Positions 2,650 to 21,998 of a stretch of 64,000 nucleotides of DNA are shown here, piece after piece. This DNA comes from Chloroflexota bacterium (GTDB taxonomy: Bacteria > Chloroflexota > UBA6077 > FW602-bin22 > JBCLEL01): assembly GCA_963664835.2 (NCBI GenBank), contig CAXXUG010000011.1, positions 69,434-133,433 of the forward strand, in the 5' to 3' direction. The position numbers and the translations under genes were made by a program. A model generated the notes under the pieces. It was not told the origin of the DNA, ran no database searches, and saw nothing but the letters and a program-made list of their open reading frames with translations. Position 1 is the first letter of the stretch, and every line of letters starts with the position of its first letter.

Positions 2650-2671
2650 ACGTCGCGGCCCCGGTAGAATA

Positions 2672-2711
2672 GAAGCAGACCCTCTCAGTTCACGCTAAGA
2701 GGGTCTGCTTC
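2672..2711 (+). terminator. Perfect 14-bp stem-loop just downstream of the SBP gene (attenuator or mRNA-stabilising hairpin)
   Basis: GAAGCAGACCCTCT (2672-2685) pairs with AGAGGGTCTGCTTC (2698-2711) around a 12-nt loop. A GGTTTTGGGTTTT tract starts about 12 nt further downstream rather than abutting the stem. Confidence 0.4.
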
Positions 2712-3096
2712 AGATCAAACCGGTTTTGGGTTTTGACGCTTCGCGCTGAAGGTTGGGCCTGGAACAGGCGGCAGGATCGTATTTCCCTCACGTCTCCGCG
2801 CCGGCAAGGTTTCCAAGAGTCACCAGAGGATCGCCTGGGGAGATGCTGACCTCGCTTCGACGAGACTGAGGATCGGGTCAACAAGCGCGACACAGTGGTA
2901 CAGCTCTCGTGTTGGAGCTCGGGCGAGCTTCGCTGGCCCTGAAATCCGGTGGGCGTACCCCCGGGGAAGTGCGTCAACCGCATAGGGATTAGGGATGTCT
3001 TAATCGGACCACCCCTTTTCCTGTCGCAGTCGATTCATGTCTGGACGAACGCCTGGTTCATACATTCCTGGCGGCGCGTCCTTAAGAGGTGTCGGA

Positions 3097-4032
3097 ATGG
3101 CGATATCGGCGGCAGGGTATAGAAGCGCGCTGTCGCAGTGGCGTCGGCGCCACTGGAGTTACCGTCCCGCCGAGGTGCGGGTCGCGCTGTTGTGCTTGTC
3201 CATCACGTTCGTAGGCATTTTCTTCTTCTCGGTGATCCCGGTCCTGGCGTCCATTTACCTGGGCTTTACCGACTTCAATCCCCTGAGAGACTCCCGGCCG
3301 TACTGGACCGGCCTGGACAACTACGTGCGCCTGCTGGACGACAGCCGCTTCATCAAGGCGGTCGGCAATACCCTCTACTACTACGTCTTCGCGGCGCCCC
3401 TTACCCTCGGTCTGGGTTTGATCGCGGCGCTGGCCTTCAACCGCCAGATCCGGGGAATGGCCTTCTTCCGGATCACCTACTACACTCCCACCCTGGCCTC
3501 GATGGTAGCCGTGTCTCTGTTCTGGTTGTGGATATTCAACCCAGACTACGGGCTACTCAATGCCTTCATAGGTGTGTTCGGTTTCAAGCCAGTCCGCTGG
3601 CTCTTGAGCCCTGACTCGGCGATGCCAGCAATAATCATCCTATCGGTGTGGAAGGGCGCCGGGTTTGCGATGATTATCTTCTTGGCCGGCCTGCAGACCA
3701 TCCCCCAGCATCTCTATGAGTCCTCTGAGATTGATGGCGCGAACCGCTTTCAGCGTTTCATCCACGTCACCTGGCCGCTCCTGCGCCCAACCACGGCCTT
3801 TCTGTTCATAACCTTTACTCTGGGAGCGTTCCAGGTCTTCGAGCAGGTCTTCGTGCTTACCAGGGGTGGTCCGGCCGAGGCAACGACGACGATCGTCCAT
3901 CAGATCTACGCCCGGGCTTTCAGTTACCTGATGATGGGTTACGCGTCGTCTCAGGCGACTCTTCTGCTGCTGGCGTTGTTGGTGATAACCATAATCAACA
4001 TGCGCCTGTTGGTGCGCGACATTGAGTACTGA
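3097..4032 (+). CDS. ABC transporter permease (MalF/UgpA-like)
   Basis: Polytopic membrane ORF with EAA-loop-like SSEIDGANRFQRFIHVTWPLLRP. The start is set at ATG 3097 (AGAGG SD). The ORF is open from 3037. Confidence 0.85.
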   Translation: MAISAAGYRSALSQWRRRHWSYRPAEVRVALLCLSITFVGIFFFSVIPVLASIYLGFTDFNPLRDSRPYWTGLDNYVRLLDDSRFIKAVGNTLYYYVFAAPLTLGLGLIAALAFNRQIRGMAFFRITYYTPTLASMVAVSLFWLWIFNPDYGLLNAFIGVFGFKPVRWLLSPDSAMPAIIILSVWKGAGFAMIIFLAGLQTIPQHLYESSEIDGANRFQRFIHVTWPLLRPTTAFLFITFTLGAFQVFEQVFVLTRGGPAEATTTIVHQIYARAFSYLMMGYASSQATLLLLALLVITIINMRLLVRDIEY

Positions 4033-4064
4033 ATCCACGCGAGAGGTGACGAGAGCAGGCTGAT

Positions 4065-5006
4065 ATGGCACGGTCGACAGCACGAACCGAAGCGAGCGGC
4101 TACCTGACAGTACGGCTCCCCTGGTGGCGAAAGGTCAGTGCGGGATTTACCCTAGCCATGACAGCGGCCGTGCTCGGCGCGGCGATCATGATGGTGCCGT
4201 TTGTCTGGGGCGCCCTCACGTCGTTCAAACCCAGTGGTGAATATCTCAGTATCCCGCCAACCTGGCTTCCCGAACAGTGGACGCTCGATGGGTACGAGCT
4301 TGCCCTCTACCGGGGCGGTTTGCTAACCGGCCTCAAGAACTCCTTCATCGTCGCGGGAATCAGCACCGTTCTGATGGTTCTGAGCGCAGTGCTGGCTGGG
4401 TACGCCTTCGCCAGATTGCGTTTCCCCTTCAGCCGGGTGATCTTCCTGATCGTCTTGGCGACGATGATGATTCCCTGGCCGGTGACGCTGCTTCCCTTGT
4501 TCATCATGATGGTGAAGTTCCCGCTGGCCGGCGGCAACGACATCTTCGGCTCGGGCGGCCGAGGGTTAGTGGATACCTACGAGGGCCTAATCCTGCCAAG
4601 TCTGGGTTTCGCGTACGGGACCTACCTCATGCGTGAGTTCTTCAAGGCGCTGCCGGCGGAGTTGGAGGATGCGGCGCGTGTCGATGGGGCCGGGGAGCTG
4701 AGAATTCTGTTTCAGATCATGGTGCCTCTCAGCAAACCAGCGATGGCCGCCCTATCCATCATCGCGTTCCAGAACAACTGGAACAGCTTCATCTGGCCGC
4801 TAGTCATGACTAATAAGCCGAGTATGGCCGTCGTCCAGATCGTACTCCAGCAACTCCAGTTAATCTCGTCACCGGGGGAAAGGTTGTTCGTCCGCTGGGA
4901 TGCGGTGAATGCCGGTGGTATGATTTCGCTGATACCCCTGGCGATCTTCTTCCTATTCTTCCAGCGATACTTCATCAGAGGCATCGCCATGACCGGCTTC
5001 AAGTAG
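4065..5006 (+). CDS. ABC transporter permease (MalG/UgpE-like)
   Basis: Polytopic membrane ORF with EAA loop EDAARVDGAGELRILFQIMVPLSKP. It lies 32 nt after the preceding permease. Confidence 0.85.
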   Translation: MARSTARTEASGYLTVRLPWWRKVSAGFTLAMTAAVLGAAIMMVPFVWGALTSFKPSGEYLSIPPTWLPEQWTLDGYELALYRGGLLTGLKNSFIVAGISTVLMVLSAVLAGYAFARLRFPFSRVIFLIVLATMMIPWPVTLLPLFIMMVKFPLAGGNDIFGSGGRGLVDTYEGLILPSLGFAYGTYLMREFFKALPAELEDAARVDGAGELRILFQIMVPLSKPAMAALSIIAFQNNWNSFIWPLVMTNKPSMAVVQIVLQQLQLISSPGERLFVRWDAVNAGGMISLIPLAIFFLFFQRYFIRGIAMTGFK

Positions 5007-7134: not shown

Positions 7135-7320
7135 TTCGTCCTATCGTCAGGTCCAATGCGGCAGGCTTGATCGTGATGCTAACGGTCGACGGTTTCGGTT
7201 GGCCGGCAGCTCACGTTGGCCTCAGTGCGTTCGAGGCTTGCCCCTAGATTTCAGACGAGCGCAATCGATAGAGGCGACGGTGGAATTCGATGTTACTATG
7301 CGATCAAGGAGGGGGAACAG

Positions 7321-8373
7321 ATGCTTTTCGGAAGGTTTTCGGGAACCCATTTCGAAATGGGACGACAACACGGCCAGGCCTTTGCTAGCCTGTTGAGCCA
7401 GAACCGGGATGCGTTGCACACGGTCTCGCCGGAGGTTCGTCAACAGCAGGACTTGCTTTTCACCAAGTTTGAATCGGCATTGAGTAGGACCGCTCCGGAG
7501 CTGATCGAGGAGATGCGGGGCATAGCCGAGGGAGCCGCACTTTCTTACGAGGACGTGGTACGGCTGAACTTTGCTGAGGAAGTAGGCGGAGGCAACCTCG
7601 GATGCTCCCAATTTGGCATAGTCGCGGCCGACGGCAGCGCGGTCATGGGTAAGAATGAGGACCACGGATTCGGTCTCCGCACATACGTTGTAACCGAGCT
7701 GCATCCTGACAACGGGTATGCCCAGGTGCACGTTGGCGCCGTGAACTGGGTAGTTAGCTCCGGAAGTGGGATCAACGAAGCGGGACTGTGTGTTGGCCAA
7801 TCCTCGCTTAACGTCACAAGTGAAGCCGATGGCGTGCCCCGGTTGACGATGCTGCGACTAGTCTTGGAGCGCTGCGAGACAGTATCGGAGGCCGGGGAGC
7901 TTCTCAGGACGAAGACCGGTGGGATACGAGGGTTGAACTTTTTGATGGTGGACGCGAACGGAGATATGGCCGTGGTAGAGAGTGCTCCGTCACTGTGCGC
8001 CGTGCGCCAGACCGAGGATTGCGCAATCTGGGCATCGAACCATCCTGTCGATCCCAAGATGCGGGCGGTGGAGAGGATAATCGTAGGTACCGAGACGGAC
8101 CTAGAGCGAACGCTTGCAATGGATGCGAATTCACGGCAACGTTTTGGCAGACTTAGCGCTCTCGCGCGTGATCACGCTGACCCGCCGGGGCACGATGAGG
8201 CCCGCCGGTCGGTGGAGAGCGTGATCCGGTCCCACGGGCCGGGTGGCATGTGTCAGCACGGGCTAATGCAGACTACCTGGTCGGTATTGATGGACGCTCG
8301 CAACCGGGAGCTACTGCTGGCGGATGGGTATCCTTGCACGACAGCCTGGGAACGCTTCAGCCTCGCAAACTGA
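7321..8373 (+). CDS. Peptidase C45 family (acyl-CoA:6-APA acyltransferase-like) Ntn hydrolase, paralog 1
   Basis: An AGGAGGG SD precedes ATG 7321; the ORF is open from 7216. The putative autoprocessing site and nucleophile is GNLG|CSQFG (Cys codon 7603-7605). It is about 60% identical by eye to the downstream paralog. Confidence 0.78.
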   Translation: MLFGRFSGTHFEMGRQHGQAFASLLSQNRDALHTVSPEVRQQQDLLFTKFESALSRTAPELIEEMRGIAEGAALSYEDVVRLNFAEEVGGGNLGCSQFGIVAADGSAVMGKNEDHGFGLRTYVVTELHPDNGYAQVHVGAVNWVVSSGSGINEAGLCVGQSSLNVTSEADGVPRLTMLRLVLERCETVSEAGELLRTKTGGIRGLNFLMVDANGDMAVVESAPSLCAVRQTEDCAIWASNHPVDPKMRAVERIIVGTETDLERTLAMDANSRQRFGRLSALARDHADPPGHDEARRSVESVIRSHGPGGMCQHGLMQTTWSVLMDARNRELLLADGYPCTTAWERFSLAN

Positions 8374-8641: not shown

Positions 8642-9688
8642 ATGCGTTTCGAACGCTTTTCGGGTTCGCACCTGAGTATGGGGATTCAGCGCGGCAAGGC
8701 CTTTCGAGACCAGTTACAACAACGCAGCCATACCATCGATTCCTGGTCGCCTGAAGCCCAGGATCGAGTCGACTCTCTAGTCAGAAGGTTCGGGTCATCG
8801 CTGAGCGGTTTCGCTCCGGAACTGATTGAGGAGATGCAAGGCATCGCCCAAGGCGCCGGATTGAGCTACGAGGATGTCGCGCGCCTCAACTTCTCGGAGG
8901 AGATCGGAATACCCATCGGTTGTTCCCAGGTTGGACTCGTCAATCGCGATGGCGACGTGATGATGGGCAAGGCGGAAGACGCCGGATTCTCGCGAACGTA
9001 CGTGGTTACCGAACTCCATCCCGATCAAGGCTTCGCTCAGATTCACGTCGGTGCGATCAACTGGGTAGTCAGCTCCGGCAGTGGGATCAACGAGGCCGGC
9101 CTTTGTATCGGCCAATCCTCCCTTCGCATCTTTGACGAGGCGGAGGGAGTGCCCAGGTTGACGATGCTGCGCTTGGCACTTGAACGCTGCGCCACGGTAT
9201 CTGAGGCCTCAGAGCTTATTGAGACTGCGACCGGCGGCATCAGGGGTATGAACTTTCTGATGGTGGATGCAAAGGGCGAGATGAGGGTCATCGAGCGCTC
9301 CCCTTCGCTGTGCGCAGTCCGTCAGCCGGCGAATGGCGCGATCTGGGCTACCAACCATCCGGTTGATCCTCGAATGCGGGCAGTGGAGCACATAATCACC
9401 GGCGCTGAGCCGGATTTCGAGCGCGATCTTGCCTACGAGGCCAACTCGCGACAGAGGTTCGGCCGGCTTGATCATTTGACCCGCGACGAGGTGGATGGGC
9501 TCGGAGTGAAGGAATCACTGCAGAAGGTGATGACCTCACACGGGCCCGGTGGTGCCTGTCAGCACGGCGTTATGGAGACTACCTGGACGGTCATGATGGC
9601 CCCGCGCAGTCGCGAGTTGTGGCTGTCGGACGGACCGCCCTGTCGCAATCCGTTTGAGCTCTACTCTTTCAGCGGAAGACAACGGTAG
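8642..9688 (+). CDS. Peptidase C45 family Ntn hydrolase, paralog 2
   Basis: GGAGG SD. Nucleophile context IPIG|CSQVG (Cys codon 8921-8923). The stop TAG (9686-9688) abuts the ATG of the first GH2-like gene. Confidence 0.78.
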   Translation: MRFERFSGSHLSMGIQRGKAFRDQLQQRSHTIDSWSPEAQDRVDSLVRRFGSSLSGFAPELIEEMQGIAQGAGLSYEDVARLNFSEEIGIPIGCSQVGLVNRDGDVMMGKAEDAGFSRTYVVTELHPDQGFAQIHVGAINWVVSSGSGINEAGLCIGQSSLRIFDEAEGVPRLTMLRLALERCATVSEASELIETATGGIRGMNFLMVDAKGEMRVIERSPSLCAVRQPANGAIWATNHPVDPRMRAVEHIITGAEPDFERDLAYEANSRQRFGRLDHLTRDEVDGLGVKESLQKVMTSHGPGGACQHGVMETTWTVMMAPRSRELWLSDGPPCRNPFELYSFSGRQR

Positions 9689-12157
9689 ATGGGATCGCCG
9701 CCGCACTCGCTGTGGTCGCGCTCGTTTGAACTCGTCTACTACAATCCTTCGCCGAAATTTCGGGGGCGTACACCCTTCCGCGACCCCGAGGACGATCCGC
9801 TAACCACTGAACAGCGAATAGCCTACCTGGAAGCCTACGCCGATCTGCTGCGGCGAGAGAACGATCTGGGCGACGACTGGCTCTCCTCCGAGGTGGTCAG
9901 CGAAGAGGAAGGGCGCCAGCTGGCCTCGCAGATCAAGGCAAAGCCTCTGCCCCGCAACAGGGGGATAGTTCCGCTTCGCTTCTGGCGTTGGAAGCTGCAA
10001 GGGGCCGAGGAGGACGAGTGGGTGGCGTCCGACTTCGACGACAGCCTGTGGAACGAGCTAGAAGTGCCGACGGTGCTGGATATGGGAAGAGCGATGCTTC
10101 TAAGATGCACAGCCCATATCAGAGCGTCGGAACGAGTGGTGCTGGACATCGAATCTATCCACGACGAGTACGAGCTGTGGGTGAATGGCGAGCCGGTGGC
10201 CCACCACGAAGGCTACGAGCCGCACAGCGTGGATATCACGTCGTACGTAGAGGCAGGACAGGAGAACACATTTGCAATCTGCGTCGCCAAGAAGCCCGGC
10301 TATCAGATCGGAATCGCCGGCTGCATTCAGGTGGTGGGCACTCGCTCGGTCTACATAGAGGATCTGTTCGTGAAGCCGGTCGAGGCGATGGAAGGTCGGC
10401 CGGCACGAGTTCAGATCAACGTGACGGTAAGGAATGTCGGAGATCAGGCCTTCTCCGGGCGGTTGGAGGCCAGGTTCAACAAGTGGTACCCGGAGGAAGA
10501 CGGGGCAGTGGCGTACGAGATGGGGGCGATGGATGTAGAGGCAGGGCCAGGCGAGGCGGTGGAGCTAAGCGAGGAGTGTGTCTGGACGGGAGCGGAGCTG
10601 TGGTGGCCGGAGCGACCACGGTTGTACAGGGTGGAGGCGGTACTGAGATCGGAAGGCAGCGAGCAAATCGACGATTACGTAGACACGGTAGGAATCCGCA
10701 CTATACAGCAACGTGGAGGCAGGTTGTACCTGAACGGCCGGCGGTTCGTGGTGCGCGGTTTCTGCCACAATCTTGGTTTCGCGCCAGGGACAGACTCCCA
10801 CGGTTCGGTGTGTCCGCCGGACGCCTGGATCGTAAGGGACTTCCTGCTAGCGAAGCGCGCCAACGCGAACGGTATCCGGATACATCCATGGGGATTCGCC
10901 CAGCGGCCTGGGCAGTACAACGAATATGGATTCCCAGAATGGCACACCCACACCGATAGCACTAACTACGTTCGGATCGCCGAAATCGCCGACCAGATCG
11001 GCATTTGCCTGACTTGGGTGACCCGCCACTGGACGCTATGGCCATCTGAGTTCCGCAAGCATTACCGCGAAGACGATATGGAAAGGTTGCTGGCGCTTTC
11101 CATCAAGCGGGTGCGGAATCACCCGAGCATCATCTCTTACGAAGGCCTCAACGAGGTAGGATCCGGTATGGGGAGAGGGGTCTTAGGGGTAGAGTTGAGT
11201 CACGCCGAGCAACCCTGGGCGAGCAACTTGACCACACAGGAAATCGAGACGCTGAACCGCCGCTATGAGCAAATCTACAAGGATTTTTGCACCTGCTTTA
11301 TGCGATTAGTTGAGTCGGTAGACGACTCACGCCTAATGTGCCCGGACTCGAAGTGGGGACCCTCATACCAGGAGGACCCGAAGTTTCCTGACGCCCTCCA
11401 GCACCAGGACACTTCAATCTTCACCCTGACTGAGAGTGTTTACTGGGCTACTCACGATAAGCCCGGCTGGTATATGGAGTTCCACGATATTTACGCTAGG
11501 AAAGATCGCGTATTGCCGGACGATCGAGCGCGAGCGGTAATTTGGGATGAGTTTTCGGCGGAAGCGATGCCTGATTGGGAGCGCTATCGAGGCCTGCCGT
11601 GGCGAAGTACCTGGCTGAACAACCACATACCGGTCGGAGTGCACGAGAAGGCGAGGCTTGGGCGGCCGTTGCGGGCCTTGCGCGACTCTGAAGCCCACAT
11701 ATCGCAGGCTTATCAGGGCCTCCACTTCCAGCAGGTGGCTTACTTCGTGCGCGCCAACGGCGGCGACGGTATGCAATATGCGATCATAATCGATGGCTTG
11801 TCGCAGGGTATGTACCACAAGGGTGTATGCGACCTCTACCGGCGCGCCAAGCTGGGGTACTTCGCGGCACGTATGACCTACCAACCCACGTTGGTGACGG
11901 GGATGGACGGCGACTTTGTCCTCTCAGAGGATGATGCCCTGCGTCTGGTCCTGATCAACGATGCGGTCGAGCGCACAGGTAAGCGAGTGAAGGTGAGGAT
12001 TCAGGTCAAGCGCCCAGATGGCGGCCGGGTGGATACCGAGGAACTTGATGCCACCATCGATGCGTCGGGCGTCACTCCGGTAGGAAACTATCGGCCACAG
12101 TTTCCGGCCGCTGGCCTGTATCAGATTGAGTACGTGGTGACGCCCGTCGAGGACTAA
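9689..12157 (+). CDS. GH2-like glycoside hydrolase, tandem copy 1 (both catalytic Glu present)
   Basis: GH2 sugar-binding-domain pattern FDDSLWNELEVP...WVNGEPVAHHEGYEPHSVDIT. RVRNHPSIISYEGLNEVG matches LacZ RDRNHPSVIIWSLGNE (acid/base GAG at 11153-11155). The nucleophile context is IWDEFSAEAM. No signal peptide. Confidence 0.8.
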   Translation: MGSPPHSLWSRSFELVYYNPSPKFRGRTPFRDPEDDPLTTEQRIAYLEAYADLLRRENDLGDDWLSSEVVSEEEGRQLASQIKAKPLPRNRGIVPLRFWRWKLQGAEEDEWVASDFDDSLWNELEVPTVLDMGRAMLLRCTAHIRASERVVLDIESIHDEYELWVNGEPVAHHEGYEPHSVDITSYVEAGQENTFAICVAKKPGYQIGIAGCIQVVGTRSVYIEDLFVKPVEAMEGRPARVQINVTVRNVGDQAFSGRLEARFNKWYPEEDGAVAYEMGAMDVEAGPGEAVELSEECVWTGAELWWPERPRLYRVEAVLRSEGSEQIDDYVDTVGIRTIQQRGGRLYLNGRRFVVRGFCHNLGFAPGTDSHGSVCPPDAWIVRDFLLAKRANANGIRIHPWGFAQRPGQYNEYGFPEWHTHTDSTNYVRIAEIADQIGICLTWVTRHWTLWPSEFRKHYREDDMERLLALSIKRVRNHPSIISYEGLNEVGSGMGRGVLGVELSHAEQPWASNLTTQEIETLNRRYEQIYKDFCTCFMRLVESVDDSRLMCPDSKWGPSYQEDPKFPDALQHQDTSIFTLTESVYWATHDKPGWYMEFHDIYARKDRVLPDDRARAVIWDEFSAEAMPDWERYRGLPWRSTWLNNHIPVGVHEKARLGRPLRALRDSEAHISQAYQGLHFQQVAYFVRANGGDGMQYAIIIDGLSQGMYHKGVCDLYRRAKLGYFAARMTYQPTLVTGMDGDFVLSEDDALRLVLINDAVERTGKRVKVRIQVKRPDGGRVDTEELDATIDASGVTPVGNYRPQFPAAGLYQIEYVVTPVED

Positions 12158-12197
12158 AGGGTCGCTCAATGCGGAAGTTATTGGGGGAAGACAGACG

Positions 12198-14663
12198 ATG
12201 ACTGCTCCGGACGACTTGCTATGGTCACGTTCGTTCGAGCTGGTCTACTACAACCCTGCATCCAAGTTTCGCGGACGCACCCACTTTCGTGACCCCGAGA
12301 ACGATCCGCTAACCACCGAACAGCGAATTGCCTACCTGGATGCCTACGCCGACCTGCTGCGGCGAGAGAACGATCTGGGCGACGACTGGCTCTCCTCCGA
12401 GGTGGTCAGCGAAGAGGAAGGGCGTCAGCTGGCCTCGCAGATCAAGGCAAGGCCGCTGCCCCACAACAGGGAGATAGTTCCGCTTCGCTTCTGGCGGTGG
12501 AAGCTGCAAGGCGCCGAGGAGGACGAGTGGGCGGCGTCCGACTTCGACGACAGCCTCTGGAACGAGCTAGAAGTGCCGACGGTCCTGGATATGGGAAGAG
12601 CGATGCTTCTAAGATGCACAGCCCATATCAGAGCGTCGGAACGAGTGGTGCTGGACATCGAATCGATCCACGACGAGTACGAGCTGTGGGTAAATGGCGA
12701 GTCGGTCGCTCACCACGAAGGCTACGAGCCGCACCAGGTCGACATCACCTACGTAATCCGGCCAGGACAGGAGAATACGATTGCAATCAAGGTTGCCGAG
12801 AAGGAAGGCTACCAGATCGGCATCGCGGGCTGCATCCAGGTGGTGGGCACTCGCTCAGTCTACATAGAGGACCTGTTCGTGAAGCCGGTCGAGGCGATGG
12901 AAGGTCGGCCGGCACGAGTTCAGATTATCGTGACGGTAAGAAATGTCGGAGATCAGGCCTTCTCCGGGCAGTTGGAGGCCAGGTTCAACCGGTGGTTCCC
13001 GGAGGAAGACGGGGCAGTGGCCTACGAGATGGGGGCGATGGAGGTAGAGGTAGGGCCAGGCGAGGCTGTGGAGCTATGCGAAGAGTGCGTCTGGACGGGA
13101 GCGGAGCTGTGGTGGCCGGAGCGACCACGGTTGTACAGGGTGGAGGCGGTACTGAGATCGGAAGGTAGCGAGCAAATCGACGATTACGTAGACACGGTGG
13201 GGATCCGCACCATACAGCAACGTGGAGGCAGGTTGTACCTGAACGGCCGGCGGTTTGTGTGGCGCAGCTTCGGCGACAACCTCGGATTTGCGCCGGGTGC
13301 TGACTCCCACAGCGCTACCTGCCCTCCCGACGCCTGGATCGTAAGGGACTTCCTGCTGGCCAAGCGGGCCAACGCTAACGGCGTGCGTGTCCATCCCTGG
13401 GGTTACGGGGAGAGACCCGGAGAACGCAACGAATATGGATTCCCTGAGTTCAGCGTGCACTCGGATGGTACCAACTACGTTCGGATCGCCGAAATCGCCG
13501 ACCAGATAGGTCTTTGCCTGATCTGGGTGACACGTCACTGGACGCTAGGGGCCTCGGAATTTCGAAGTCACTATCGCGAGGAAGACCTTGAAAGGTTGTT
13601 AGTACCGTCGATCAAGCGGGTGCGGAATCATCCGAGCATCATCTCCTATGAAGGTATGAATGGCGTCGGGGTGAACGTTTTGCGCCGAGCTTTGTGGGTG
13701 CTATTCAGTGACGATCCGCAGCCCTGGCTGGGTCACCTGAATCCGCAGGAAGTAGAGTCTTTAACTCGGCTGCAAGAACGTCGATACATAGAGTATTGTG
13801 CGAGATACATACGGCTGGTCGACTCGGTGGATGATTCACGCCTAGTCTGTCCGGATTCGCATTGGGGGCCCGCTTATCAGGGTAAGACGAGCTGGAATGC
13901 GGTCCAACACAAGAACGAGTCTGTATTCACACTGACTGAGAACGTGTACTGGGACCTCCATGAGGCCCCGGGATGGTACGGTGACTTTGCAGACATGTAC
14001 GCGCATAAGGACCGACTCTTGCCGGATGATCGGACCCGAGCGGTGATTTGGAGCGAGTTCTCGGCCGAGGCGATGCCCGATTGGCAGCGCTACCGTGGGC
14101 TGCCTTGGCGAAACATGTGGATCAACCACGATAGACCTACTGCCGGCATCGAGAAGGCGCGGCTGGGCCGGCATCTGCGGAGACTGCGCGATCCGGAGGT
14201 CCATATATCGCAGGCCTACCAGGGCCTATTCTTCCAACAAGTCGCTAGCTTCATACGCGCGAGAGCGGCCGAGGGGATGAACTGCCAGTTGCTCACCGAC
14301 GGGCTTTCCCAGGGAATGTACCACAAGGGGGTATGCGACCTCTACCGACGCGCCAAGCTGGGATACTTCGCAGCACGTATGACCTACCAACCCACGTTGG
14401 TGACCGGGATGGACGGCGATTTTGTCCTCTCAGAGGATGATGCCCTGCGTCTGGTCCTGATCAACGATGCGGTCGAGCGCGCAGGTCAGCCAGTGAAGGT
14501 GAGGATTCAGGTCAAGCGCCCAGATGGCGGCCGGGTGGATACCAAGGATCTCAATGCTACCATCGATGCGTCGGGCGTCACGCCGGTAGGAAACTATCGG
14601 CCACAGTTTCCGGCCGCTGGCCTGTATCAGATTGAGTACGTGGTAACGCCGGTCGAGAACTAA
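12198..14663 (+). CDS. GH2-like protein, tandem copy 2 (acid/base Glu replaced by Gly)
   Basis: Same architecture as copy 1. The aligned motif reads ISYEGMNGVG (GGC at 13662-13664, the same codon index 489 as in copy 1). The nucleophile context IWSEFSAEAM is retained. Confidence 0.8.
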   Translation: MTAPDDLLWSRSFELVYYNPASKFRGRTHFRDPENDPLTTEQRIAYLDAYADLLRRENDLGDDWLSSEVVSEEEGRQLASQIKARPLPHNREIVPLRFWRWKLQGAEEDEWAASDFDDSLWNELEVPTVLDMGRAMLLRCTAHIRASERVVLDIESIHDEYELWVNGESVAHHEGYEPHQVDITYVIRPGQENTIAIKVAEKEGYQIGIAGCIQVVGTRSVYIEDLFVKPVEAMEGRPARVQIIVTVRNVGDQAFSGQLEARFNRWFPEEDGAVAYEMGAMEVEVGPGEAVELCEECVWTGAELWWPERPRLYRVEAVLRSEGSEQIDDYVDTVGIRTIQQRGGRLYLNGRRFVWRSFGDNLGFAPGADSHSATCPPDAWIVRDFLLAKRANANGVRVHPWGYGERPGERNEYGFPEFSVHSDGTNYVRIAEIADQIGLCLIWVTRHWTLGASEFRSHYREEDLERLLVPSIKRVRNHPSIISYEGMNGVGVNVLRRALWVLFSDDPQPWLGHLNPQEVESLTRLQERRYIEYCARYIRLVDSVDDSRLVCPDSHWGPAYQGKTSWNAVQHKNESVFTLTENVYWDLHEAPGWYGDFADMYAHKDRLLPDDRTRAVIWSEFSAEAMPDWQRYRGLPWRNMWINHDRPTAGIEKARLGRHLRRLRDPEVHISQAYQGLFFQQVASFIRARAAEGMNCQLLTDGLSQGMYHKGVCDLYRRAKLGYFAARMTYQPTLVTGMDGDFVLSEDDALRLVLINDAVERAGQPVKVRIQVKRPDGGRVDTKDLNATIDASGVTPVGNYRPQFPAAGLYQIEYVVTPVEN

Positions 14664-14704
14664 CGAGGGCGCTCAATGCGGAAGTTATTAGGAGAAGACA
14701 GACG

Positions 14705-17188
14705 ATGACTGCTCCGGACGACTTGCTGTGGTCGCGTTCGTTCGAATTGGTCTATTACGATCCTTCAACTAAGTTTCGCGGGCGCACGCACTTCCGTGAC
14801 CCCGAGAACGATCCGCTAACCACCGAACGGCGAATAGCCTACCTAGATGCCTACGCCAATCTGCTGCGGCGAGAGAACAATCTGGGCGACGACTGGCTCT
14901 CATCCGAGGTGGTCGGCGAAGACGAGGCTGAGCAGCTGGCCTCGCAGATCAAGGACAGGCCGCTGCCACGCCAGCGGCAAATCGTCCAGCTTCGCTTCTG
15001 GCGGTGGAAGCTGCAAGGCGCCGAGGAGGACGAGTGGGCGGCGACCGACTTCGACGACAGCCTCTGGAATGAACTGGAAACGCCGACAGTACTGGATATG
15101 GGAAGGGCGATGCTTCTGCGGAGCCGGGAGCACATTGAAACCTCGGAACGAGTGGTGCTCGACATCGAGTCGATCCACGACGAGTACGACCTATGGGTAA
15201 ATGGCGAGTCAGTAGTTCACCACAAAGGGTATGAGCCGCACTCGGTCGACATCACATCGTTCATACGGGCGGGGCAGGAGAATACGTTTGCAATCCGCGT
15301 CGCCAAGAAGCCCGGCTATCAGATTGGAATCGCCGGGCGCATCCAAGTGGTGGGCACTCGCTCGGTCTACATAGAGGATGTGTTTGTGAAGCCGGTCGAG
15401 GCGATGGAAGGTCGGCCGGCCCGAGTTCAGATCATCACGATCGTACGGAATGCCGGCGGTCAGGCTTTCAGTGGTCGACTGGCGGCCCGTTTCTACCGGT
15501 GGTTCCCGGAGGAAGATGGGGCGGTCGCCTATGAGGCGCCATCGATGGAGGTAGAGGTTGGGCCGGGCCAGGCGGTGGAACTGAGCCAGGACTGTGTCTG
15601 GGCGGGAGCGGAGCTGTGGTGGCCGGAGCGGCCCCACTTGTACAAGGTGGAAGCGGTCGTGAACTCAGAACATGGGGAGCAACTCGACGACTATGTAGAC
15701 ACTGTGGGTATCCGAACTATACAGCAACGAGGGGGCAGGATTTACCTGAATGGCAAGCGCTTCGTATTGCGCAGTTTCGGCGATAACCTGGGATTTGCGC
15801 CGAGCGCCGACTCTCATAGCTCGGTGTGTCCGCCTGATGGCTGGATTGTCAGGGACTTCCTGCTGGCCAAGCGGGCAAACGCAAACGGCGTGCGGATTCA
15901 TCCTTGGGGTTACGGTGAAAGACCTGGAGAGTACAACGAACTCGGATTCCCGGAGTGGGGCGATCACACAGACGGCACCAGCTACGTTCGGATTGCCGAG
16001 ATCGCGGACCAGATCGGCCTCTGCCTGATCTGGGTGACTCGACTATGGACGCTGGGAGCCTCGGAATTTCGCAAACATTACGACGAACAAGAGATGGAGC
16101 GATTGCTGCCGCCGTGCATCAAACAGGTGCGGAATCATCCAAGCATAATCTCCCACGAGGGGCTCAACGGAGTTGGGGCGACTATGACGAGCGGAGCCCT
16201 CGGAGTGCTGATGGGAAGTGCCGAGGAGACTTGGTTGAGGAATCTGTCTCCACAGGAAGTCAAGACGCTGAACCATCTTCACGAGCGTCGGTACGAGGAA
16301 TTCTGTGCCAAGTTCATCCAATTGGTCAACTCGGCTGACGGCTCACGGTTGGTCTGTCCAGACTCACATTGGAGCCCAGGGTATCAGGGAGAAGCCCATC
16401 AGGTCACGACGTTTGCGTTATGGGACACGGATGTGGAGGACGAGTCAGCGTTTACCCTGACAGAGAACCTCTACTGGGCCCTCCACGAGTACCCTGGCTG
16501 GTACAGGGATTTCCAGGAAATGTATGCCAGGAAAGACCGTATCATTCCGCACGATAGAGCGCGACCGGTGATATGGACTGAGTTTGCCGCCGAGGCTATG
16601 CCCGATTGGGAGCGCTACCGAGGACTTCCCTGGCGAAATATGTGGATAAACCACGACAGTCCTACGGCTGCGATTGAAAGGGCAAGGCTTGGGCGGCCGT
16701 TGCGGGCCCTGCGCGACTCCGAGGCCCACCTCTCGCAAGCTTACCAGGGCCTGTTCTTCCAGCAGGTAAGCACATTTGGCCGGGTGGTCGGCTGCGATGG
16801 GATGAACTTTCAGCTCATAACCGATGGCTTGTCGCAGGGTATGTATCACAAAGGGGTGTGCGACCTCTACCGGCGCGCCAAGTTGGGATACTTTGCCGCA
16901 CGCATGGCCTATCAACCCACGTTGGTGACCGGGATGGATGGAGACTTTGTCTTCTCAGAGGATGACGCCCTACATCTAGTCCTGGTTAATGATGCGGTGA
17001 AGCGTATAGGGGAACGCGTGAAGGTGCAGGTTAGGGTCAAGCATCCGGAGGGCGGCCTGGTGGATTCTACCGAATTAGATGCTTCCCTCGATGGATCGGG
17101 TATTGTCGAATTGGGAGATTATAGACCGCGTTTCCCGACCGCTGGTCTTTATCAAATCGAGTATACAGTCCTGCCAGGCCAGGGTTGA
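14705..17188 (+). CDS. GH2-like protein, tandem copy 3 (acid/base Glu replaced by Gly)
   Basis: The aligned motif reads ISHEGLNGVG (GGA at 16169-16171, codon 489). The nucleophile context IWTEFAAEAM is retained. Confidence 0.8.
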   Translation: MTAPDDLLWSRSFELVYYDPSTKFRGRTHFRDPENDPLTTERRIAYLDAYANLLRRENNLGDDWLSSEVVGEDEAEQLASQIKDRPLPRQRQIVQLRFWRWKLQGAEEDEWAATDFDDSLWNELETPTVLDMGRAMLLRSREHIETSERVVLDIESIHDEYDLWVNGESVVHHKGYEPHSVDITSFIRAGQENTFAIRVAKKPGYQIGIAGRIQVVGTRSVYIEDVFVKPVEAMEGRPARVQIITIVRNAGGQAFSGRLAARFYRWFPEEDGAVAYEAPSMEVEVGPGQAVELSQDCVWAGAELWWPERPHLYKVEAVVNSEHGEQLDDYVDTVGIRTIQQRGGRIYLNGKRFVLRSFGDNLGFAPSADSHSSVCPPDGWIVRDFLLAKRANANGVRIHPWGYGERPGEYNELGFPEWGDHTDGTSYVRIAEIADQIGLCLIWVTRLWTLGASEFRKHYDEQEMERLLPPCIKQVRNHPSIISHEGLNGVGATMTSGALGVLMGSAEETWLRNLSPQEVKTLNHLHERRYEEFCAKFIQLVNSADGSRLVCPDSHWSPGYQGEAHQVTTFALWDTDVEDESAFTLTENLYWALHEYPGWYRDFQEMYARKDRIIPHDRARPVIWTEFAAEAMPDWERYRGLPWRNMWINHDSPTAAIERARLGRPLRALRDSEAHLSQAYQGLFFQQVSTFGRVVGCDGMNFQLITDGLSQGMYHKGVCDLYRRAKLGYFAARMAYQPTLVTGMDGDFVFSEDDALHLVLVNDAVKRIGERVKVQVRVKHPEGGLVDSTELDASLDGSGIVELGDYRPRFPTAGLYQIEYTVLPGQG

Positions 17189-17232
17189 TGGCCGGGCGCC
17201 GCGACACGAAATCTGCTAACGGAGGATATTCG

Positions 17233-19698
17233 ATGACGATGCAGGAGAATTCGCTTTGGTCTCGCTCTTTCGAGTTGGTCTATTACGATCCTTCACCTGA
17301 TTTCCAGGGCCGCACACACTTCCGAGACCCCGAGAACGACGCCCTGACCACCGAGCAGCGAATTGCTTACGTCGAGGCATACACTGATCTGCTGCGCCGG
17401 GAAAACGACCTTGGGGAGCGCTACCTGTCGACTGAGGTGGTGAGCGATGAGGAGTCAGAGCAGCTCGCCTCTCAGATCAAGAACAGGCCGATGTCGAATC
17501 AGCGCAATACCGTCCCCCTCTGCTTCTGGCGCTGGAAGCTGCAGGGCGCCGAGAACGACGAGTGGGTTGCGCCCGACTTCGATGACAGCGTCTGGAACGA
17601 GCTGGAAGTTCCTACCGTCCTCGATATGGGCAGAGCCATGCTTCTGAGATCCAAAGCTCATATCGAACCTTCAGAACGAGTTGTGCTAGATATCGAATCT
17701 ATCCACGACGAGTACGAACTTTGGGTCAATGGCCAGTCAGTAGTTCACCACAAAGGGTATGAGCCGCACTCCGTCGACATCACATCGGTCATACGGGCGG
17801 GCCAGGAGAATACGTTTGCAATCAAGGTTGCCGAGAAGAAAGGCTACCAGATCGGCATCGCCGGCTCGATCCAGTTGGTGGGCACCCGTTCGGCCTACAT
17901 AGACGATGTGTTTGTGAAGCCGGTCGAGGCGATGGAAGATCGGCCGGCCCGAGTGCAGATCATCACGACCGTTCGGAATGCCGGCGGTCAGGCTTTCACT
18001 GGTCGACTGGCGGCCCGTTTCTACCGGTGGTTCCCGGAGGAAGATGCGGCAGTCGCCTATGAGGCGCCGTCAATGGAGGTGGAGGTTGGGCCAGGCCAAT
18101 CGGCGGAGCTAAACCAGGAATGCAACTGGTCCGGTGCGGAGCTGTGGTGGCCGGAGAGCCCTCGCATCTACAGGCTGGAGGCCACGCTGAGCTCAGATGA
18201 TGACGAGCGCATGGACGACTATGCGGATACTGTTGGCATTCGTACTATAGAGCAGCGTGGAGGCCGGTTCTACCTGAACGGCCGGCGATTCGTGATGCGC
18301 GGTTTCTGCGACAACCTCGGATTTGCGCCGGCTCCAGACTCCCACGGCGCGACCTGCCCACCAGACGCCTGGATCGCCAGGGACCTCATCCTGGCGAAGC
18401 GTGCCAACGCCAACACCGTTCGAATACACCCCTGGGGTTTCAGCGGTCAGCCGGGGCAATACGACGACCGGGGCTGGCCAGTCTGGGGCTTGCCTACCGA
18501 TGGCACCAACTACGGCCGCGTAGCCGAGATTGCTGATCAGATTGGTATCTGTCTCGTCTGGGTAACGCGCCATTGGACGCTGTGGGCCGATGGGTTCCGC
18601 GAACACTACAATAGCGACGAGATGGAAACGCTTCTGGCGCCTTCACTGAAGCAGGTGCGAAATCATCCCAGCATCATTTCCTACGAGGGGCTGAATGAGG
18701 TGGGAGTGGGCCTGGGACCACGCGTAATCTTGGGTCGGGAAGGTGCCGAGCCGGAGTGGACTAGCCATTTGCTGCCGGATGAAGTTGAGACGCTGACCGA
18801 ATTCCATGTGCGTCTTTACAGAGATTTCTGTGCCAGTTACATCCGGTTGGTCAACTCGGTTGACGATTCGCGAGTAGTCTGCCCAGACTCCCAATGGGGG
18901 CCTGGTTACCAAGACTTTGCCGAGAGGTCGGACGCGGTCCAATTCGATGACGAGTCCGTGTTTACCATGGCGGAGAACGTCTATTGGGACTTCCACCATT
19001 ACCCTGGCTGGTACACGGACATCAAGGATATGTATGCGCGGAAAGAGCGTTTTTGGCCGGATGACCGGGCCCGAGCGGTCATTTGTGGCGAATATTCGGC
19101 AGAGGCTATGCCCGACTGGAATCGCTACCGAGGGCTGCCCTGGCGAAACACCTGGCTGAACAATGGACGCCCCACCGGTGAAATCGAGCAGGCGCGCCTG
19201 GGTCGGCCGCTGCGCGTGCTGCGGGACTCGGAGGCGCATCTGTCACAGGCCTATCACGGGCTTTGTATCTATCATTCCGCCGTCTACTTGCGCGCCACTG
19301 GTTGCGACGGCATGATCAGCCCCATCTTGGCCGACGGGTTATCCGAGGGCCAGTACCACAAGGGTTTTTTGGACCTGCATCGCCGCGCTAAGTTGGGATA
19401 CTTTGCTGTGACTATGACTTATCAGCCCACCCTAGTAACCGGAATGGACGGCGACTTTGTCTTCTCCCGGGACGACTCTTTGCACCTAGTCCTGGTGAAT
19501 GATGCGCCGCAGCGAGTTAGCAGGCCGGCAACGGTGCTGGTGCAGGCCAAGAAGTTGGACGGTTCGGTTGTAGACTCCAGGGAGGTGAGGGTAACTATCG
19601 ATGATTCAGGCATCATGCCCCTTGGAGAGTTTCAGCCGCAGTTTCCAAGCTCAGGGTTGTACCAAATCGAATACACAGTTGTGGCCGATCCGGATTGA
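17233..19698 (+). CDS. GH2-like glycoside hydrolase, tandem copy 4 (both catalytic Glu present)
   Basis: The start is set at ATG 17233 (GGAGG SD; MTMQENSLWSRSF aligns with the other copies). The ORF is open from 17185. The acid/base motif is ISYEGLNEVG (GAG 18697-18699). ICGEYSAEAM closely resembles LacZ ILCEYAHAMGN. Confidence 0.8.
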   Translation: MTMQENSLWSRSFELVYYDPSPDFQGRTHFRDPENDALTTEQRIAYVEAYTDLLRRENDLGERYLSTEVVSDEESEQLASQIKNRPMSNQRNTVPLCFWRWKLQGAENDEWVAPDFDDSVWNELEVPTVLDMGRAMLLRSKAHIEPSERVVLDIESIHDEYELWVNGQSVVHHKGYEPHSVDITSVIRAGQENTFAIKVAEKKGYQIGIAGSIQLVGTRSAYIDDVFVKPVEAMEDRPARVQIITTVRNAGGQAFTGRLAARFYRWFPEEDAAVAYEAPSMEVEVGPGQSAELNQECNWSGAELWWPESPRIYRLEATLSSDDDERMDDYADTVGIRTIEQRGGRFYLNGRRFVMRGFCDNLGFAPAPDSHGATCPPDAWIARDLILAKRANANTVRIHPWGFSGQPGQYDDRGWPVWGLPTDGTNYGRVAEIADQIGICLVWVTRHWTLWADGFREHYNSDEMETLLAPSLKQVRNHPSIISYEGLNEVGVGLGPRVILGREGAEPEWTSHLLPDEVETLTEFHVRLYRDFCASYIRLVNSVDDSRVVCPDSQWGPGYQDFAERSDAVQFDDESVFTMAENVYWDFHHYPGWYTDIKDMYARKERFWPDDRARAVICGEYSAEAMPDWNRYRGLPWRNTWLNNGRPTGEIEQARLGRPLRVLRDSEAHLSQAYHGLCIYHSAVYLRATGCDGMISPILADGLSEGQYHKGFLDLHRRAKLGYFAVTMTYQPTLVTGMDGDFVFSRDDSLHLVLVNDAPQRVSRPATVLVQAKKLDGSVVDSREVRVTIDDSGIMPLGEFQPQFPSSGLYQIEYTVVADPD

Positions 19699-19727: not shown

Positions 19728-21998
19728 TTGGGAAGGAAAAGGCACTTGGCCGAGGACGAGCGGACCAGCGATAATCGTCGGACAGCCGATCACGGTGACC
19801 GGCTCAGCCGTCTCGATGACACTCAGCGAGTGCGCGAACTGGTCCTTGCCGTTGCCTTTCTCGGTCTGCTAGTGGTCCAAAGTGCCCACCAGGCCGAGTA
19901 CGTCATCCGTTTATTGCAGCGCGACGTATTCAACAACCCAACCGCAAACGGACTGCTTGGTCAGTTCTTGGATCTCGAACCCCTTGATCTGGCCTACAAC
20001 CTCGCTTGCTTCTTGCTACTGCTTTTGGTGTACAGGTCAAGTAATGCTCATAATCCTGGGCGATGGACCCGCGGAATGCCAGCCTGGTGGTTGCTCACCT
20101 TGGCGCTCGCGATCGGGGGTTACCACCTTGTTGATCACCTCTTTAAGATCTGGCAATTCATCGACACCCGACGCGAAGGAATGCCCGGCATTCTAGGCGA
20201 CTCCTTGAACCTGACCTGGCTAGACTTCGCACTCAACACAACATCCTATTTGGCGGTTGTGGCGGCCTTTTGGCTGGGTGGCTACTACCGGCATCTGAAG
20301 GCTGACCTGGCAGCACTATGGGCTGAGATTGCCGGCAGCACATCTGTCGGGCGGACTGCTCACGGGTTGCCGACCCTTTCCCGCCGGGGGCTTTTCATAG
20401 GAGCGGTTGGCATTGCGGCGGCGCTAGGGGCGGCCCGAGTCGGCATTCGCGCCTGGCGCCCTCCGATCGAAATGCCAACTTTCGCTGATGCAACCCGGTC
20501 GGCTGGGATCGATTTCAGGCACCGTGAGCACTTTCTCCCGGAGCCAATTCAGGCTGGCGCCGCCTTCTTCGACTATGACGGTGACGGACGTCCTGACATC
20601 TTCCTGACCAACGGCAGCGGACCTAACGCCCTCTATCGCAACAACGGTGATGGCACGTTCGATGACGTAACCGCCAAAGCTGGCCTTGTCGATCCTGATG
20701 AAGTCGCAATCGGTGTAGCCTGCGCAGATTACAACAACAATGGTAACTGCGATCTACTCGTAACTACACTGGAAGGACCTAAGCTCTTCCGCAACAACGG
20801 CGATGGTACATTCACCGATGTCACCAAACCGGCTCGTCTCCATGGGTATCACGGACACCCGACTTCAGTGGCCTGGACCGATTTCGACGGCGACGGCTAT
20901 TTGGATCTCTACGTCGCATATTGGTTCAACTTGTTTCCAAAGCCGATCCACGATCCATCGCTGGCGGCTTTCAGGGATAGTAAGAGACCCGAGCATCGCT
21001 CCCATGTTTTGTTCAGGAACAATGGCGATGGCACTTTCACGGATGTGTCAGAGTACCTTGACCCGCGGCCCAGGCACGGTACTGGCCTTGCCGTCGGATT
21101 CTTCGACTATGATGACGATGGCCGCCCAGATCTATACGTCGTGAATGACTTCGGCCAATATAGGGGGCCTAACACCCTCTATCACAACTCTGGTCCTGTG
21201 GGAGGCGGTTGGGCGTTCACTGACGTCTCTAGGCAGGCCGGCGCTCGTGCTGAAATGGACGGAATGGGTTTGGCGGTCGGGGACTACGATGGAGATGGCC
21301 GGCTGGACATGTACATTACGAACAGGGGCAGCAACTTGCTATATCGCAACCGTGGTGACGGAACTTTCGAGGAATCGACAGGTAGTGCAGGGGTTGGCCG
21401 TGGAGAGGTTGGCGGTGAATACTCAGTCGGTTGGGGCAACGCCTTTTTGGACTTCGACAATGATGGCTTGCTCGACCTCTACTTCGTCGCGGGCAACATC
21501 TATCCTAAAACGAATGTCAACGGAGATTATGGTCCTGACCAGCCAAACGCGCTATTCCACAATCGAGGCGCCGGCAAGTTCCGCGATGTGTCAGCTATCA
21601 CCGGCACTGACCACACTGGAGTAGCCAGGGGATTGGCGGTGGCTGACTATGACGGCGACGGATTCCTGGACCTGCTGGTGGCCAACATCGATCAACCACC
21701 AGTATTGTTGCGAAACTCTGGCAATGATAACCATTGGCTAGCGGTTCAGCTAGTTGGCAAGCGCAGCAACCGTGATGGTGTCGGCGCCCGGCTAGCGTTA
21801 ACCGCCGGCGGACGGCGGCAGGTCCGGGAGATCCATAGCGGCACCAGCTTTCTGTCTCAGCATAGCCTGGTGGCTCACTTTGGCCTCGGTCGACTCGATC
21901 GTGCTGACGAGCTACAGATTCGCTGGCCCAGTGGCGTTGTACAAACGCTTACGAACCTGGTGGTCGATCGCGAGATTACAGTAACAGAAGCAGTCTGA
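19728..21998 (+). CDS. CRTAC1 / ASPIC-UnbV family protein (FG-GAP/VCBS-like repeats) with an N-terminal polytopic membrane region
   Basis: Repeated FRNNGDGTFTDV / DYDGDG motifs. The C-terminal RDGVGARLALTAGGRRQVREIHSGTSFLSQHSLVAHFGLG matches the ASPIC/UnbV domain. The first ~210 aa hold 4-5 hydrophobic segments. An internal TAT-like SRRGLFIGAVGIAAALGAA lies at aa ~218. The true start is uncertain (TTG at 19728). Confidence 0.78.
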   Translation: MGRKRHLAEDERTSDNRRTADHGDRLSRLDDTQRVRELVLAVAFLGLLVVQSAHQAEYVIRLLQRDVFNNPTANGLLGQFLDLEPLDLAYNLACFLLLLLVYRSSNAHNPGRWTRGMPAWWLLTLALAIGGYHLVDHLFKIWQFIDTRREGMPGILGDSLNLTWLDFALNTTSYLAVVAAFWLGGYYRHLKADLAALWAEIAGSTSVGRTAHGLPTLSRRGLFIGAVGIAAALGAARVGIRAWRPPIEMPTFADATRSAGIDFRHREHFLPEPIQAGAAFFDYDGDGRPDIFLTNGSGPNALYRNNGDGTFDDVTAKAGLVDPDEVAIGVACADYNNNGNCDLLVTTLEGPKLFRNNGDGTFTDVTKPARLHGYHGHPTSVAWTDFDGDGYLDLYVAYWFNLFPKPIHDPSLAAFRDSKRPEHRSHVLFRNNGDGTFTDVSEYLDPRPRHGTGLAVGFFDYDDDGRPDLYVVNDFGQYRGPNTLYHNSGPVGGGWAFTDVSRQAGARAEMDGMGLAVGDYDGDGRLDMYITNRGSNLLYRNRGDGTFEESTGSAGVGRGEVGGEYSVGWGNAFLDFDNDGLLDLYFVAGNIYPKTNVNGDYGPDQPNALFHNRGAGKFRDVSAITGTDHTGVARGLAVADYDGDGFLDLLVANIDQPPVLLRNSGNDNHWLAVQLVGKRSNRDGVGARLALTAGGRRQVREIHSGTSFLSQHSLVAHFGLGRLDRADELQIRWPSGVVQTLTNLVVDREITVTEAV

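Follow-up and report, generated by a model that had tools for sequence, protein, structure and literature searches.

Three paralogs of a GH2-like gene family in a Chloroflexota bacterium lack the acid/base glutamate and are maintained under purifying selection

Retaining glycosidases rarely lose their acid/base residue in nature, and the study of such cases has brought new chemistry to light, myrosinase being an example. The plant myrosinases (family GH1 of clan GH-A) are natural retaining glycosidases without the acid/base Glu, whose activity relies on a substrate that carries a good leaving group and on ascorbate as an external base. The same residue has been removed by engineering in thioglycoligases and in mutants rescued by azide or formate, e.g., the E477A version of the Xanthomonas GH2 exo-β-mannanase (PDB 6byi). 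A further set of relatives, the GH18 chi-lectins and the KL domains of Klotho, comprises catalytically inactive glycosidase homologs that are secreted or receptor proteins of eukaryotes. Our search of the literature found no natural GH2 protein lacking the acid/base residue. Here, we describe a tandem array of GH2-like genes from a Chloroflexota bacterium, situated in a stretch of 64,000 nucleotides (henceforth the window: positions 69,434–133,433 of the forward strand of contig CAXXUG010000011.1, assembly GCA_963664835.2), in which two of the four copies, along with a fifth paralog outside the window, have Gly or Ser in place of this Glu. Analogs in other families, such as myrosinase, Klotho, and the chi-lectins, are already known. 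From their sequences, it is probable that these three Glu-less paralogs carry out a task different from the ordinary cleavage of sugars.

The array is made up of four head-to-tail genes on the plus strand (window positions 9689–19698), each of 821–827 codons and separated from the next by gaps of 40–44 nucleotides:

9689–12157, plus strand: GH2-like copy 1 (c1), 822 aa; N488-E489 with the Glu codon GAG at 11153–11155; predicted nucleophile E621 at 11549–11551; Tyr591 replaced by Lys (AAG, 11459–11461)
12198–14663, plus strand: GH2-like copy 2 (c2), 821 aa; Gly489 (GGC) at 13662–13664; predicted nucleophile E620 at 14055–14057; Tyr equivalent replaced by Ala (GCC, 13965–13967); clade-specific His-Asp of 'WINHD' at 14127–14132
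14705–17188, plus strand: GH2-like copy 3 (c3), 827 aa; Gly489 (GGA) at 16169–16171; predicted nucleophile E626 at 16580–16582; Tyr kept at 16490–16492; 'WINHD' at 16652–16657
17233–19698, plus strand: GH2-like copy 4 (c4), 821 aa; N488-E489 with the Glu codon GAG at 18697–18699; Tyr590 at 19000–19002; predicted nucleophile E620 at 19090–19092

The longest open reading frame of copy 4 begins at a TTG (17185) and overlaps copy 3. However, its start is most likely the ATG at 17233 because this is preceded by GGAGGA, yields a protein of 821 aa with the intergenic spacing seen between the other copies, and gives the length called in related contigs. With this start, the motif of interest lies at codon 489 in all four array copies: copies 1 and 4 both have NHPSIISYEGLNEVG (RNHPSIISYEGLNEVG), with GAG at codon 489, copy 2 reads YEGMNGVG (AAT GGC, 13659–13664), and copy 3 reads HEGLNGVG (AAC GGA, 16166–16171). 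The nucleophile-type Glu, within the motif VI[WC]xE[FY]xAEAM, is kept in all four (first bases at 11549, 14055, 16580, and 19090). The coordinates, codons, and motifs that the initial annotation had given for the four copies are exact, and its identification of a nucleophile-type Glu in each of them was confirmed. The fifth paralog (c5; G000:C11:44081–46534, minus strand) is located approximately 33 kb upstream of copy 1 and has the motif YEGFNSIG, with Ser (AGC) at position 489. The source genome, a 3.84-Mb metagenome-assembled genome (MAG), accordingly codes for 4 + 1 copies. The '2+2 pattern' that had been read from the array is in actuality one of two Glu and three non-Glu (Gly, Gly, and Ser) copies, with the latter forming a single clade rather than any paired arrangement.

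The assignment of position 489 was approached with a profile of 25 family members, which was compared using hhalign with the products of E. coli K-12 uidA (GUS) and lacZ. The comparison with GUS aligned E489 with E413 and E621 with E504 (probability 98.6), and that with LacZ aligned E489 with E461 (probability 99.1). In a phmmer search of the PDB sequences, copy 1 (SYEGLNEVGS) lined up with a fungal β-glucuronidase (5c70; MWSIANEPAS) in a register agreeing with that of hhalign. The AlphaFold2 models of copy 1 (predicted local distance difference test score, pLDDT, 86.2) and copy 2 (pLDDT 86.7), both with a predicted template modeling score of 0.90, have matching secondary structure, with barrel strands at residues 355–360, 395–398, 440–444, 481–488, 549–553, 586–589, 617–622, and 694–701. 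In these models, residue 489 lies immediately past β-4 (481–488) and E621 at the end of β-7 (617–622), i.e., the '4/7' signature of clan GH-A. E621, which closes this predicted strand and aligns with GUS E504, is invariant across the 25 family members. A Foldseek search with the copy 1 model recovered only GH2 proteins among the top 50 PDB matches, the best being BuGUS-2 (5uj6/6d50; E ~1e-36) and β-mannosidases, and the matches also include the above-mentioned engineered acid/base mutant 6byi. Thus, sequence profiles and predicted strand topology show residue 489 to occupy the GH2 acid/base position and E621 that of the nucleophile. The equivalence to LacZ E461 proposed in the initial annotation is thereby supported at the profile and fold level by hhalign, phmmer, and the AlphaFold2 topology. 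By this assignment, the acid/base Glu of the N-E motif at the end of β-4 is present in c1 and c4 and absent in c2 and c3 (Gly) and c5 (Ser). Among individual domain models, PF00703 matched all copies (38–42 bits; cutoff 23), PF02837 reached 25–30 bits (cutoff 28), and the GH2 barrel model PF02836 (cutoff 21) remained below threshold in c1 (14.9 bits) and c4 (12.8 bits), with no match in c2 and c3; hence, the barrel is seen only by profile–profile and fold comparison. No member with a functional name or solved structure was found in this family of approximately 800-aa GH2-like proteins.

We compared the copies with known GH2 enzymes, namely E. coli UidA (E413/E504/Y468) and LacZ (E461/E537/Y503), B. 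uniformis GUS-2 (5uj6/6d50), and the β-mannosidases 2je8 and 2vr4. Like these, they display a jelly roll, an Ig-like sandwich, a (β/α)8 barrel, and C-terminal sandwiches, with an NHPS...NE motif ending β-4, the nucleophile Glu ending β-7, and Lys711 aligning with GUS K568. Unlike them, they possess an additional N-terminal extension of approximately 95 aa and invariant residues of their own (E485, E625, and YHKG), and show an identity of only 14–18% to the known versions. They also depart from them at the catalytic positions, with the acid/base Glu replaced by Gly or Ser in copies 2, 3, and 5 and the Tyr by Lys or Ala in copies 1 and 2.

These replacements of the acid/base residue have a narrow distribution. 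All 20 other close family members (33–70% identity) have NE at this position. An exhaustive profile search of 1.84 billion cluster representatives recovered only 123 proteins at E ≤ 1e-30, and among the 101 matches that are gap-free across the β-4 motif, 54 have NE, 12 have DE, and 35 have NH, with none showing Gly or Ser. By these sequence counts, position 489 is labile in this corner of GH2, yet Gly and Ser are confined to this Chloroflexota genus.

The NH versions, which account for 35 of the 101 representatives, constitute a sister clade that reads NHPSIVMWEASNHP, with a His at the acid/base position aligned with LacZ E461. They are GH2-like proteins of approximately 950–1010 aa from MAGs of gut Firmicutes and Bacteroidota (P0027–P0038, P0135, P0140, and others; loci L027–L031), for which we found neither names nor a close solved structure. 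The presence of His at the equivalent of 489 in this large gut clade also calls for caution in annotation: a 'GH2' label on a gene of this family does not by itself make its product a hydrolase.

Within the Chloroflexota genus, the 4 + 1 set recurs in the sister species G002 (OZ244845.1), and Glu, Gly, Gly, and Glu, along with Ser, are found again in a third lineage (L002 and L001, both from a single ENA sample). None of these GH2-like genes was found in a third genome of the genus or in 38 further relatives. The Gly variants, whose recurrence in orthologs the initial annotation had put forward as a check, are therefore the same residues in both the sister species and the third lineage. Indeed, the codons at position 489 of c1–c5 are identical between the two species compared (GAG, GGC, GGA, GAG, and AGC). 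A tree of the core (residues 341–700; IQ-TREE with LG+G4, with the same result from FastTree) united c2 with c3 (ultrafast bootstrap 92) and these with c5 (89), placed c1 as their sister (100), and left c4 outside with the single-copy homolog P0011 (100), making copy 4 the earliest branch. Given that the Glu-less copies all group together and that the codons GGA, GGC, and AGC fit a path from Glu through Gly to Ser, the simplest history suggested by the tree is one loss followed by expansion: Glu was replaced by Gly once in the ancestor of c2, c3, and c5, and Gly (GGC) subsequently gave way to Ser (AGC) in c5. The A-B-B-A order of the genes is hence no sign of pairing.

The orthologs of the two species show whole-gene ω (dN/dS, the ratio of nonsynonymous to synonymous divergence) values of 0.23, 0.16, 0.22, 0.22, and 0.31 for c1–c5, and core-only values of 0.23, 0.12, 0.31, 0.33, and 0.26. 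The dS among the Glu-less copies is approximately 1.0–1.7 over the whole gene, and that between the cores of c2 and c3 is approximately 2.2 (saturated). Since this greatly exceeds the between-species core dS of 0.04–0.08, the Glu-less state is much older than the species split. Further, 15 distant NE homologs share 92 positions without variation, of which c1–c5 keep 86, 85, 85, 86, and 88, respectively. The nucleophile E621, N488, E485, E625, H399, W638, W642, N644, D702, and Y709-H710-K711 (of YHKG) are retained in all copies. In light of this purifying selection and the retention of the nucleophile and nearly all other family-invariant residues, the Glu-less copies are, as far as their sequences speak, functional, specialized proteins and not pseudogenes. 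The loss of a catalytic residue in recent tandem duplicates is a common first step of pseudogenization, and an insertion sequence (IS) element is present in the window; nevertheless, it is highly improbable that the Gly/Ser copies have decayed into non-function or owe their replacements to errors in the sequence. The invariant residues are kept as in the Glu copies, and the loss predates duplications whose core synonymous divergence is saturated. Moreover, the recurrence of the same replacements in three lineages, each from an independent assembly, together with the open frames and ω values of 0.12–0.31, effectively refutes both a pseudogene and an assembly error.

At the nucleotide level, the copies resemble one another in a patchy, mosaic manner. 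The identity of copies 1 and 2 is 92–99% over codons ~30–145, 200–320, and 700 to the end versus 50–80% in the barrel, and copies 3 and 4 share tracts of 92–97% identity over codons ~150–170 and 210–260. Likewise, the dS between c1 and c2 is 0.05–0.22 in the N- and C-terminal flanking domains, i.e., as low as between the two species, as opposed to 1.5–1.9 in the core. Some tracts are lineage-specific, such as that shared by c2 and c3 of G002 over codons 30–145 (dS 0.025). The low dS of the flanks, the high dS of the core, and the species-specific tracts together show that gene conversion is ongoing between neighboring copies: it homogenizes the sandwich domains together with the N-terminal extension and the C-terminal domain, while leaving the catalytic core untouched. 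The division of labor that the initial annotation had envisaged is thus supported in general terms, with all copies under purifying selection and their cores distinct despite conversion of the flanks, but not in its '2+2' form. A single genome carries one canonical version, one without the Tyr, and three without the acid/base, all under selection and with their cores shielded from conversion.

Two local patterns of identity were also observed. One is that the leader sequences upstream of copies 2 and 3 show no difference from each other in the sister species. The other involves copies 1 and 5, whose nucleotide identity is approximately 90% over codons 459–486 (window 11060–11160; L006) and collapses from codon 487; at codon 489 they have GAG and AGC, which differ in all three bases.

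The copies also differ in a further, putatively catalytic residue. Tyr591, which comes after β-6, aligns with GUS Y468 in the hhalign comparison, matching LacZ Y503, although in another, global alignment the E. coli GUS sequence falls in a different register at this point. It is present in c3, c4, and c5 and in 15 of 15 distant homologs, and is replaced by Lys in c1 and Ala in c2 in both species. Copy 4 is the only array copy with the fully canonical set of N-E, Tyr, and nucleophile; copy 2, lacking both the acid/base and the conserved Tyr, is missing two of the three catalytic residues. The segment just past residue 489 (~490–560) is the most divergent part of all copies (44–60% nucleotide identity) and is modeled with low confidence; its divergence fits differing aglycone or +1 subsites. 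The substitutions specific to the Glu-less clade include G372S, F403Y, L643I, N645H, G646D ('WINHD' for 'WLNNG'), C679F, and N698Q, with W451G being limited to c2 and c3. Of the 17 clade-specific changes, 13 fall in barrel strands or β-to-α loops on the catalytic face, against an expectation of ~59%, which is not a significant enrichment.

Among these changes, His645-Asp646 in the β-7 to α-7 loop offers a candidate for a relocated acid/base, which would make the Glu-less copies ordinary hydrolases with near-normal kinetics on normal glycosides. There is an analogy in the GH3 NagZ enzymes, which use an Asp-His dyad, and 'WINHD' stands in place of the family consensus 'WLNNG' in every Glu-less copy of the two species compared, with no close relative that bears the Glu having it. 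This loop is predicted to lie on the catalytic face of the barrel, adjoining the invariant W642 and N644, and F403Y provides a second clade-specific polar gain. Against this, the global profile alignment maps the segment to the start of α-7 in GUS (W521–E524), where we know of no catalytic residue, and P0024 and P0025 combine 'VNHHH' with an intact NE, indicating that a His here is compatible with the Glu. To our knowledge, a relocated acid/base is also undocumented in clan GH-A. Accordingly, we regard relocation as quite an unlikely explanation.

Three other candidates for a substitute were considered and set aside. E485 (the Glu of 'YEG') is invariant also in the NE members and the NH clade and lies four residues deeper in β-4. 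At the position of G405E, a Glu is found also in copy 1 of G002 and in P0011, both of which bear NE. Finally, no acidic residue of the hypervariable β-4 to α-4 loop is common to c2, c3, and c5.

The Glu-less copies combine two recognized states. As in active retaining glycosidases without an acid/base, the nucleophile is kept and the acid/base is replaced by a non-ionizable residue; as in pseudoenzymes, a catalytic residue is lost and the fold is kept under purifying selection. With myrosinase they share the clan, the position of the loss at β-4, and the intact nucleophile, but they belong to a different family, and the replacement in myrosinase is Gln rather than Gly or Ser and its substrate a thioglucoside. 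In the engineered mutants, the same residue is changed in the same fold, and a replacement of Glu by Gly, Ala, or Ser leaves a cavity able to hold an anion; unlike these mutants, whose hydrolysis is crippled, the change here is natural, ancient, selected, and accompanied by other substitutions on the active-site face. The chi-lectins and Klotho resemble the Glu-less copies in the loss of a catalytic carboxylate with the fold and sugar pocket kept under purifying selection, but the latter are bacterial and cytoplasmic, belong to another family, and are encoded in a catabolic-looking cluster.

We consider it about an even prospect, on the strength of the conserved residues, that the Glu-less copies are non-canonical catalysts, in which the retained nucleophile would take up the sugar as a glycosyl-enzyme; a role as binding subunits is less likely. 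Such catalysts would operate without the standard Koshland double displacement that uses enzyme-borne acid/base catalysis. The retained catalysis, the source of the acid/base, and the substrate are the parts of this proposal that we infer. The acid/base might be unneeded if the substrate has a good leaving group; the substrate itself might furnish it, or a small anion might do so from the space vacated by the Glu to Gly/Ser change, as in the combination of myrosinase with ascorbate or in chemical rescue; or the role might have passed to another residue, with the clade-specific His645-Asp646 as a candidate. The Glu-less copies and the canonical copy 4 could then divide between them the processing of an imported glycoconjugate, which would also be a substrate of the adjacent C45 amidohydrolases. 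As the proteins appear to be cytoplasmic and their genes lie in a same-strand cluster with an ATP-binding cassette (ABC) importer, enzymes fit better than lectins.

Several points weigh against this proposal. Chi-lectins and Klotho domains are non-catalytic glycosidase relatives that also keep the nucleophile and binding residues, so that conservation does not by itself tell catalysis from binding. In copy 2, neither the acid/base nor the Tyr is present, which makes canonical turnover very unlikely and favors a non-enzymatic role at least for this copy. The placement of His645/Asp646 or of a bound anion near the anomeric center is putative, as is the glycosidase activity of the family, its canonical copies included. 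The bootstrap support of the Glu-less clade is good but not decisive.

These points bear on the main, if less likely, alternative, namely that the Glu-less copies are non-catalytic pseudoenzymes that bind ligand or serve as structural/regulatory subunits in hetero-oligomers with copies 1 and 4, the hetero-oligomers having been suggested in the initial annotation. The loss of the acid/base in three paralogs, compounded in copy 2 by that of the Tyr, is in keeping with this, and the purifying selection equally fits a binding role. GH2 enzymes are commonly dimers or tetramers, and the four genes, placed ~40 nucleotides apart on one strand, suggest co-expression. Conversion also keeps the N-terminal extension, β-sandwich, and C-terminal domains near-identical in neighbors, which would make for compatible interfaces; however, homogenized flanks are expected from conversion anyway wherever it is tolerated. 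Two further observations fit poorly with pseudoenzyme subunits: the nucleophile and family-invariant pocket residues are as complete as in copies 1 and 4, and the Ser-bearing c5 stands alone ~33 kb away without partner copies.

A more specific version of non-canonical catalysis, drawn by analogy with the engineered mutants, is that the Gly/Ser copies are natural 'chemical-rescue' enzymes, in which a cytoplasmic anion (e.g., phosphate) or a carboxylate of the substrate would sit in the cavity of the lost Glu as acid/base or acceptor. We view this as unlikely; if true, it would yield the first retaining glycoside phosphorylases or ligases with a GH2 fold, or substrate-assisted GH2 hydrolases, and a natural counterpart of the thioglycoligases. 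More generally, if the Glu-less copies turn over a substrate, they would show a natural replacement of the enzyme-borne acid/base in the GH2 fold and could furnish scaffolds for glycoligases and transglycosidases. If they do not, they would furnish a bacterial example of pseudoenzyme subunits derived from glycosidases.

The genomic neighborhood of the array provides hints regarding its substrate. The principal neighbors are:

1162–5006, plus strand: ABC sugar-type importer (solute-binding protein and two permeases), upstream
7216–8373 and 8642–9688, plus strand: two C45 Ntn-hydrolase (AAT family) genes, directly upstream of copy 1
19728–21998, plus strand: FG-GAP/ASPIC-UnbV protein, downstream of copy 4

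Other upstream genes on the same strand code for a PhyH dioxygenase and an FAD halogenase-like protein. As a signal peptide is absent from the N-termini of the four array copies and the importer lies in the same-strand cluster, the GH2-like proteins are presumably cytoplasmic and act on an imported substrate. Immediately ahead of the single-copy NE homologs P0013 and P0011, too, there is in each case a C45 gene (L035, 6927–7949; L037, 8519–9604), and an ASPIC gene is also found near P0011. On the basis of this shared gene order, the ancestral cassette appears to be one of a C45 gene and a canonical GH2-like gene, of which this genus expanded the GH2-like part. A scan of the array for promoters and terminators gave no signal stronger than that expected from shuffled sequence.

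The family motif Y709-H710-K711-G aligns with N566-K567-K568-G of GUS, with the Lys kept and the Asn replaced by Tyr; N-x-K is the motif that binds the carboxylate of uronates in the GH2 β-glucuronidases. The retention of the Lys aligned with K568, along with the occurrence of sugar-acid genes near homologs, hints weakly at a uronate-type sugar as the substrate. The sugar-acid genes in question were observed near distant NE homologs in three regions:

L038, 10504–11367: KduI
L037, 6425–8303: HpcH/HpaI aldolase and DHDPS-family genes
L036, 13393–17504: Ldh_2 and RraA-like genes

Finally, c5 has no C45 or ASPIC neighbors and instead adjoins genes for a GMC oxidoreductase, a PhyH protein, an epimerase, and a PcRGLX-like protein (L006 and L001).

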